A stretch of DNA of 64,000 nucleotides from Schmidtea polychroa. Taxonomy: Eukaryota. The DNA is taken from NCBI GenBank assembly GCA_044892525.1, contig CM097885.1:16556001-16620000 (forward strand), in the 5' to 3' direction. Shown one piece after another: positions 22,225 through 22,720 of this stretch. The translations under genes were made by a program, and so were the position numbers. How positions within the stretch are numbered: the stretch's first letter is position 1; each line of letters starts with the position of its first letter. The notes under the pieces are model-generated. The model was not told the DNA's origin and made no database searches. It saw only the letters and a list, made by a program, of their open reading frames with translations.

Positions 22225-22720
22225 TCATTATTATTATTATTTTTATTATTATTAATTATTATAATTATTGTTATTATTATTATTATTATTATTATTATTA
22301 TTATTATTATTATTATTATTATTATATTATTATTATTATTAATATTATTATTATTATTATTATTATTATTATTATTATTATTATTATTATTATTATTATT
22401 ATTATTATTATTATTATTATTATTATTAATATTATTATTATTATTAATTTTTTTTATTATTATTATAAGAACTTTTTTTCCAATTTCACCACTGATTTCT
22501 TTTCCATTGTATTTATTAAAAAGCTTGAAGACTATGAATCAGTAAATATATCGATGTTTTTGATATTCACGAATTTTCAGCACTGCCTTTTCAAGTGATT
22601 TTATTTATTAATATTATTATTATTATTATTATTATTATTATTATTATTATTATTATTATTATTATTATTATTATTATTATTATTATTATTATTATTATTA
22701 TTATTATTATTATTATTATT
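22225..22720. repeat. (ATT)n microsatellite interrupted by a family A element (22463-22598, minus sense)
   Basis: Directly visible. Confidence 0.9.
22567..22598 (-). ncRNA. Minimal hammerhead ribozyme variant (U3-A8 core)
   Basis: Minus strand TCAC-TTGAAAA-GGC(AGT)GCT-GAA-AATT-C-GTGA: stem I TCAC/GTGA, 3-bp stem II, palindromic AATT stem III, UC cleavage site. Confidence 0.65.

Follow-up and report, generated by a model that had tools for sequence, protein, structure and literature searches.

What kind of mobile element places a hammerhead-like motif inside an ATT microsatellite, and does such an element seek out ATT tracts or even build them? The question is raised in Schmidtea polychroa by a short repeat at position 22463 of the window (the whole 64,000-nt stretch of DNA analysed here), which lies in an ATT tract with the repeated triplets on both sides. 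The repeat belongs to a family, designated family A, and we describe here its copies, its motif, its ends, its surroundings and its likeness to known elements.

Distribution of family A

A blastn search with nucleotides 22463-22605 as the query located family A at six loci in the 64-kb window, with E values of 1e-33 to 3e-9 and identities of 71-89%. Six dispersed copies had been listed in an earlier sequence-only reading of this DNA, and both blastn and nhmmer found all of them where they had been placed. Since three of the loci are inverted pairs, family A has nine arms across the six loci, 83-89% alike by BLAST (Table 1). An nhmmer profile made from these arms gave eight matches in the 64-kb window, all at the same six loci, and no hit at E ≤ 10 when searched against the reversed window. 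The ninth arm, at 57188, is 17 nt long with a match at 15 of 17 positions, a quality of match found at only two other sites in the window; a possible fourth inverted arm at 20470 matched at only 12 of 17 positions and was left uncounted. The density in the window is about one locus per 11 kb, represented by termini only, and an ORF beside the element was found at none of the six loci.

Family A was very abundant in public contig runs, in which about 120 bp of it were matched by 16,436 contigs of run X1, 9,932 of X5, 580 of X7 and 131 of X10, figures that are not copy numbers. These four runs were taken from the 13/21 listed runs containing the stretch or part of it, among which no RNA run was on record, and both repeat flanks were masked; sites near the cut are unreported in this comparison, so that an absence of variants within the hammerhead is not evidence of conservation. 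A scan of prokaryote genomes gave no match, and the sole metagenome hit of a 24-letter motif (L001), on a gene-dense prokaryotic contig with similarity over at most 29 nt, was set aside as a chance match.

Table 1. Family A and associated features, with positions numbered within the 64,000-nt window
Feature	Position	Strand	Basis
ATT tract left of the 22464 arm	22227..22463	.	TRF array 22227-22720
ATT tract right of the 22464 arm	22599..22720	.	TRF array 22227-22720
Matches of query 22463-22605	20482-20614, 52423-52563, 57203-57333, 2168-2282, 52327-52422, 29415-29474, 2227-2315		blastn
Family A arm, tail-bearing; hammerhead at 5' end; inside ATT tract	22464..22598	-	blastn, descriptor
Predicted type I hammerhead of minimal form, with a U3-A8 core, a stem I of 4 bp, a stem II of 3 bp closed by a triloop, and a palindromic stub as helix III; cut predicted at 22571/22570	22567..22598	-	descriptor
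Optional 3' extension (PLE-type tail) between two preferred 3' ends; 42 nt in this arm, 48 nt where copies have a variant longer by 6 nt	22464..22505	-	
Family A arm with tail; stops short of hammerhead at palindromic junction	2168..2262	-	blastn
Inverted tail-less partner arm of pair 2168-2310; without nearby ATT tract	2263..2310	+	17/17 match to tail-less end
Family A arm with tail; begins at core, stem I 5' strand gone, stem II broken; no ATT tract near	20479..20613	+	
Short family A arm, tail plus 13 nt; without hammerhead; no ATT tract near	29415..29474	-	
Tail-less arm of head-to-head pair; hammerhead core with U17, stem I mismatched	52327..52422	-	
Tail-bearing arm of pair 52327-52562; 6-bp stem I, A bulged after A9, U17	52423..52562	+	
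Very short tail-less inverted arm; overlaps long arm via microhomology at hammerhead core; adjoins ATT tract 56998-57187	57188..57204	-	15/17 match
Family A arm with tail; begins at core, stem II broken	57198..57333	+	
Likely target-site duplication, left copy; 14 bp clean, 17 bp counting the arm's first 3 nt	52313..52329	+	
Likely target-site duplication, right copy; first 17 nt of ATT tract 52564-52651	52563..52579	+	
5' stops at hammerhead edge, families A and B	22598, 52423, 52422, 20479, 57198, 53752, 53755, 56074		
Family B, second PLE-end family, unrelated to A	53642-53889, 29944-30043, 56074-56184		
Frameshifted C-terminal PLE ORF remnant (GIY-YIG)	3319-3670	+	54-64% identity to RT/GIY-YIG proteins P0121-P0124

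The hammerhead-like motif

On the minus strand of the 22463 copy, stem I at 22598-22595 pairs with its 3' strand at 22570-22567 (TCAC/GTGA), the core U3-U4-G5-A6-A7-A8-A9 occupies 22594-22588, and after the core come a 3-bp stem II, GAAA, a palindromic A-U helix III and U16.1-C17 at 22572-22571. Among the five arms that reach the motif, only this one has all elements in place. The stem I TCAC/GTGA and the UC site given for this copy in the earlier reading are real, with the amendment that the strand is minus; the 10.1-11.1 pair is G-U here, as against G-C in the other four of the five arms. The U3-A8 core is intact in the arms at 22594, 52431, 52418 and 57198 and carries a single change in that at 20479; the helix III stub, an A15.2-U16.2 palindrome, is present in all five, and stem II is only 3 bp long. 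Stem I has 4 bp in the 22463 copy and 6 bp in the 52423 arm and is mismatched or lost in the other three arms, two of which (20479 and 57198) have lost the 5' strand of stem I together with one stem II pair. Position 17 is C in three arms and U in two, a base is bulged after A9 in one of the five, and another has two extra bases. A plus-strand hammerhead was considered and rejected: the window contains 22 canonical cores, none of them within any family A arm on either strand, and the reading that fits is the minus-strand U3-A8 one.

A single hammerhead motif alone is not above chance. A descriptor composed after the motif had been seen matched two sites in the window, compared with a mean of 0.57 and a maximum of 2 in 30 shuffles, and fold energy z-scores were -0.07 for the 22463 copy and -1.92 for the 52423 arm. 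The MFE folds of both these arms have stems I and II around an open core; cofolding of two copies preferred intermolecular pairing, which for the 22463 copy fell outside the hammerhead register. Searching the window against Rfam yielded four hits at E ≤ 1, none of them to a hammerhead; all four were matches of miRNA or sRNA models to inverted repeats, below the gathering scores, and were dismissed as hairpin artefacts. What supports the motif is its constant position within the family, together with the PLE anatomy described below.

Ends, tails and inverted pairs

We found that the arms of family A, read in the hammerhead sense, terminate at two preferred positions: five 3' ends correspond to 22464, one lies near 22471, and three fall at 22506-22507, with the hammerhead-like motif about 130 and 90 nt upstream of the two ends, respectively. 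The end of the 2310 arm was set at 22506 by the match at 17 of 17 positions followed by unrelated flank, the local alignment having run on to 22495 through AT-rich letters. Contigs with loose ends before 22506 numbered 101 in X1 and 91 in X5; the median loose lengths were 255 and 109 nt and the agreement was 0.48 and 0.47, which indicates unrelated flanks. The run contigs also contained opposite-strand joints of family A.

Head-to-head pairs are present at three of the six loci (2168-2310, 52327-52562 and 57188-57333), and in all three the tail is on one arm only. The arms are joined at a palindrome in 2168-2310, at stem I in 52327-52562, and via microhomology at the core in 57188-57333. All three multimers are thus head-to-head, and head-to-tail tandems were found at none of the six family A loci. 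The predicted cleavage site (22571/22570) does not coincide with the end of any arm, in line with uncleaved RNA as the template. A target duplication is clear at one of the six loci (52313/52563), four loci are without one, and the locus inside the tract is unreadable in this respect. When the 52563 flank was compared with 61,261 non-tract 33-mers, none of them shared 17 nt and 40 shared 14 nt.

The tail opens with ATG exactly at the tail-less end in five of six copies; its translation is a short peptide rich in lysine, and a 6-nt indel in it preserves the frame. The possibility that this peptide is a PLE N-terminus is not supported, since it scored no higher against the N-terminal 60 residues of 58 long PLE proteins than against internal stretches, and its best E value against 260 proteins was 0.097.

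Relationship to Penelope-like elements

Two other kinds of Penelope-like sequence were found in the window. Family B has a U3-A8 core, an 8-bp stem I, a stem II of 5-6 bp with a bulged G and a degenerate helix III stub. It forms two pairs joined head to head, with a tail of 30 nt on one arm only, the hammerhead spacing being 103 and 133 nt; a 13-bp duplication is present at 29944, and the 56074 copy adjoins an ATT tract at 56174. When 260 PLE proteins were compared with the window, only the remnant at 3319-3670 was matched, and translated family A arms scored no better than E 0.097; protein P0121 had no match among viral contigs. The GIY-YIG remnant shows that endonuclease-bearing PLEs are present in the S. 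polychroa genome. About 220 nt after it, at 3897, lies a C3-G8 hammerhead core with a 6-bp stem II and no intact stem I (span 3319-3990). Judged by sequence comparison, the remnant is a third family, with no DNA similarity to family A.

Minimal hammerheads (min-HHRs) are described in the pseudo-LTRs (pLTRs) of metazoan PLEs (Cervera and De la Pena 2014, PMC4209133), and in S. mansoni the U3-A8 variant gives about 1,300 hits. According to the same source, they are mostly single, with some in close opposite-strand pairs, and show low activity, only as dimers. Family A resembles them in being of type I, with a short helix I (4-6 bp), only a palindromic stub for helix III, and U3-A8; the catalytic boxes (C/U)UGAN(G/A)A and GAAA are present, with 3 and 8 paired. 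It differs in its helix II, which has 3 bp and a triloop, compared with 7-8 bp in the S. mansoni families, and in most arms lacks the base between 9 and 10.1, whereas an unpaired base after A9 is called conserved in min-HHRs (PMC4209133). The U3-A8 minimal hammerhead in PLE ends is an already described kind, and family A is most likely one more family of PLE ends.

The insertion anatomy can be compared with the anole (Anolis carolinensis) Poseidon element PAc, whose endonuclease favours AT-rich DNA, with 5'-ATT-3' as its main cutting site on either strand (Frangieh et al. 2024, PMC11167929). In that system reverse transcription begins at two internal sites, the distance between them being the tail; synthesis extends both target strands, and mutation of the hammerhead leaves insertion at the wild-type level (PMC11167929). 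Family A is like PAc in having a hammerhead about 90-130 nt upstream of two tail-bounding ends, copy ends not set by cleavage, and an AT-rich, ATT-centred target; it differs in that PAc, a full element, has a C3-G8 core and an ORF that begins in stem II, whereas family A is known from termini alone. The Penelope of Adineta vaga has head-to-head pLTRs, palindromic junctions, duplications of 8-10 bp and AT-rich or (AAT)n-rich targets (PMC3846280). With it and Drosophila virilis Penelope (PMC3846280, PMC2377424), family A shares inverted pLTRs with palindromic or overlapping junctions, a tail on one arm, target duplications, solo pLTRs and an attraction to simple AT-rich and (AAT)n sequence, although in those species the inverted pLTR is usually found flanking a copy that carries an ORF, and the element itself is rare.

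PLEs often carry a tail of 30-40 bp on one end, with an inverted truncated copy next to them (PMC8557442), and the 42-48 nt of the family A tail are slightly longer than this published range. Naiad, Chlamys and Neptune have (TA)n, (CA)n and (C)n as their reported targets (Craig et al. 2021, PMC8557442). Family A resembles these elements in lying near simple repeats and in its tail, inverted truncated copies and high copy number, and non-autonomous Chlamys derivatives exist; Naiad and most Chlamys are without a canonical hammerhead, whereas family A has a hammerhead-type motif, and the endonuclease of Naiad is N-terminal (PMC8557442).

Taken together, family A is probably the 3' end of an abundant Penelope-like retroelement, that is, a piece of pseudo-LTR with a predicted minimal hammerhead and an optional tail, copied into AT-rich sites, including ATT tracts, by target-primed reverse transcription. 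Membership in the endonuclease-bearing PLEs is the most likely assignment; it is based on the motif together with the anatomy of the insertions, and no attached ORF enters into it. The sequence-only reading had proposed a ribozyme-containing non-autonomous retroelement; the minimal hammerhead and the signature of tail, inversion and duplication support a non-coding retro-insert that is related to PLEs and bears a ribozyme. By inference from PLE biochemistry, a GIY-YIG endonuclease would nick AT-rich DNA, ATT being the preferred cut in the anole element, and a reverse transcriptase would start within the RNA at either of two sites, yielding a copy with or without the tail. Both target strands would then be extended, and the head-to-head pairs would arise when two short cDNAs are joined at a palindrome or a microhomology. 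Cleavage by the hammerhead would occur only in a dimer or with the help of protein, its cut not setting the copy ends, and the protein would be supplied in trans or by a full-length parent. Since ATT tracts are rich in such cut sites, they would collect copies. By analogy with the known systems, nicking, two-site priming and cDNA joining could give every structure seen.

The 5' boundary and other possible origins

All eight arms that reach the hammerhead (five of family A and three of family B) stop within about 10 nt of the core, and none runs further upstream; in family A the stops are about 24-32 nt upstream of the predicted cut. Random 5' truncation leaves these stops, eight out of eight at the hammerhead edge, unexplained, and the shared stop points to an RNA with a defined 5' end, to a short master element or to a circle. 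In D. virilis Penelope the start site precedes helix I by about 120 nt, made up of 46 nt and a 75-nt intron (PMC2377424), and the intron end maps to helix I (PMC4209133); the edge of family A is therefore not simply the known promoter position. Titles and abstract openings in the literature, in a search that covered few subscription papers, contained nothing on a fixed 5' boundary at the hammerhead or on PLE-driven birth of ATT tracts.

One reading of this boundary is that family A is a dedicated short non-autonomous element, SINE-like and mobilised by a PLE, whose RNA starts just upstream of the hammerhead and whose full copies are 135 nt long by design and not by truncation, or that the copies come from the 5' end of a parent mRNA primed at upstream reverse transcription start sites. 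That all eight arms stop at the hammerhead edge, none at the cut and none past it, argues for this reading, as do the abundance of the family in X1 and X5 and the resemblance of the 5' end of the 22464 arm to the Inr-like pentamer of the rotifer pLTR (PMC3846280). However, the sample is small and comes from a single window, the edge of family B is without an Inr-like pentamer, and the D. virilis start site lies well upstream of helix I (PMC2377424, PMC4209133), so that we regard this origin as possible but doubtful; it has its insertion mechanism in common with the explanation preferred above. A circular template would be provided if family A were the monomer offspring of a non-LTR retrozyme, in which a hammerhead-processed tandem gives a circular RNA that is copied once around. 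One pass round a circle of about 140 nt from the tail would stop just upstream of the hammerhead, as observed, and solo monomers are common in retrozyme families (bioRxiv 10.64898/2026.07.22.740005). Non-LTR retrozymes are, like family A, short, non-coding, hammerhead-bearing, related to PLE pLTRs and found as solo monomers, but they are defined by head-to-tail tandems with a type I hammerhead in each unit (PMC7229834, bioRxiv 10.64898/2026.07.22.740005), an arrangement seen at none of the six loci, where the three multimers are head-to-head. In addition, the motif is minimal, as against the canonical type I of retrozymes (PMC7229834), and min-HHRs are poor cleavers in vitro (PMC4209133), and a retrozyme origin seems to us highly improbable. 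We likewise attach very little probability to the idea that the hammerhead pattern arose by chance in an AT-rich repeat belonging to some other class. The Rfam result, the descriptor count within the range of the shuffles and the fold z-score of -0.07 would all agree with such a pattern, but the unrelated family B has the same type of core, a 4-nt helix III stub and the same distance to a one-sided tail, and neither terminal inverted repeats nor paired LTRs were seen in family A, which is also not homologous to the gypsy LTRs of the window.

Association with ATT tracts

As the sequence-only reading had noted, the 22463 copy is inside an ATT tract (TRF 22227-22720) and the 52327 and 57198 copies adjoin tracts; the distances are 1-2 bp for 52327-52562 and 57188-57333, and the other three loci are 1.6-4.4 kb from any tract. 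With the loci cut out, three of the six junctions are within 15-50 bp of runs of at least four units, as are 3.5-4.9% of positions in the window (P 0.0008-0.002). Stricter tract rules against the same uniform background leave one to three of the six junctions (P 0.0015-0.18). Compared with AT-matched sites, P was 0.047-0.53 under the loosest tract rule and up to 0.95 under stricter ones (n=6). Tracts were near three of the six family A loci and none of 16 other repeat copies (Fisher P 0.013), or near four of ten loci when families B and C were included (P 0.014); these controls were hand-picked from other repeats and transposase-like ORFs and all lie more than 25 bp from any tract, with some pairs non-independent and a Pfam hAT match in only one of the four transposase-like ORFs. 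The association with ATT is thus real relative to average DNA and inseparable from an AT preference at n=6, and it is likely that the nearness reflects a preference for AT-rich landing sites. As regards the microsatellite targeting proposed earlier, the loci are enriched near tracts over the uniform background (P ~0.001) but not clearly over AT-matched sites (P 0.05-0.5 for three of six loci under the loosest rule), and they show no more than a preference for AT-rich sites.

The polarity of the tracts bears on whether the element makes them. Beside the 3' end of an arm the tract is (AAT)n in two cases and (ATT)n in two, a mixture that argues against templated (TAA)n tails. Among tracts of at least four units, 12 are (ATT)n and one is (AAT)n on the plus strand, whatever the direction of the element (P 0.003), the ratio being 17:12 at three units. 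Both results argue against the suggestion in the earlier reading that the element starts or lengthens (TAA)n tails, if these are taken to be templated. The strand polarity of the tracts hints at a regional cause, for example the direction of transcription or replication. At 52563 the duplication consists of the first 14-17 bp of the tract, from which it follows that at least this much of the tract pre-existed. Eight of the 11 TRF ATT arrays are without a family A copy, and seven are without a copy of either family A or family B.

It may still be asked whether the element truly targets ATT arrays, or whether insertion creates or expands them through duplicated or added units growing by one-sided slippage, either of which would link PLE activity to the ATT load. 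The nearness of three of the six loci to tracts relative to background, the Fisher tests, and the microsatellite bias known in other PLE clades (PMC8557442) point in this direction, as does the placement of three of the four tract-linked loci at the edge of a tract (P 0.004-0.07 across the edge zones used), which is a post hoc comparison. Against it are the AT-matched comparison, in which the signal weakens further under stricter rules, the 2:2 polarity relative to the arms in a region where the tracts are strand-polarised regardless of element direction, the pre-existing part of the tract at 52563, the seven tracts with neither family and the hand-picked, partly dependent controls, and on balance we consider this link unlikely. 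Still less probable in our judgement is a combined scheme, in which a hyper-abundant SINE-like unit of 135 nt, starting exactly at the minimal hammerhead and mobilised by Penelope, would land at short ATT seeds, duplicate them and start or lengthen one-sided ATT tracts.

Other features of the window

The window is AT-rich animal DNA, with a GC content of 19-35%, or 21-35%, across 2-kb bins, and ATT tracts make up about 3% of it. At 34556-34883 an (AAT)n run of about 50 bp is directly joined to a 280-bp (ATT)n run, forming an inverted microsatellite junction. A SoxB-type HMG-box gene with two open frames occupies 35013-36648 on the minus strand; a 117-bp ATT tract (35566-35682) lies between the two frames, and the downstream frame contains a poly-Asn run encoded by the tract at 35084-35141. 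A short LTR retrotransposon of 3.1 kb (40116-43229, minus strand) has 235-bp LTRs that are 99.6% identical and Pfam matches to a zinc knuckle, RNase H and integrase, with no reverse transcriptase core in the two ORFs scanned. In addition, we located the C-terminal remnant of a hAT transposase (PF05699) at 30202-30975 on the plus strand, and an exon-like ORF at 63491-63814 on the minus strand that matches mitochondrial ribosomal protein S34 (Pfam PF16053).

Implications

With family A read as the 3' end of a Penelope-like retroelement, the six loci may serve as a natural test bed in which two start sites, priming on both strands, ATT-rich targets and ribozyme-independent ends appear as the in vitro work of 2024 predicts. 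If the copies at tract edges had helped to build the tracts, a telomerase-related retroelement would be tied to the birth of microsatellites. If, moreover, the SINE-like, tract-building scheme were true, PLE activity would be a driver of the ATT load, and the hammerhead edge would mark the RNA 5' end in two independent families.
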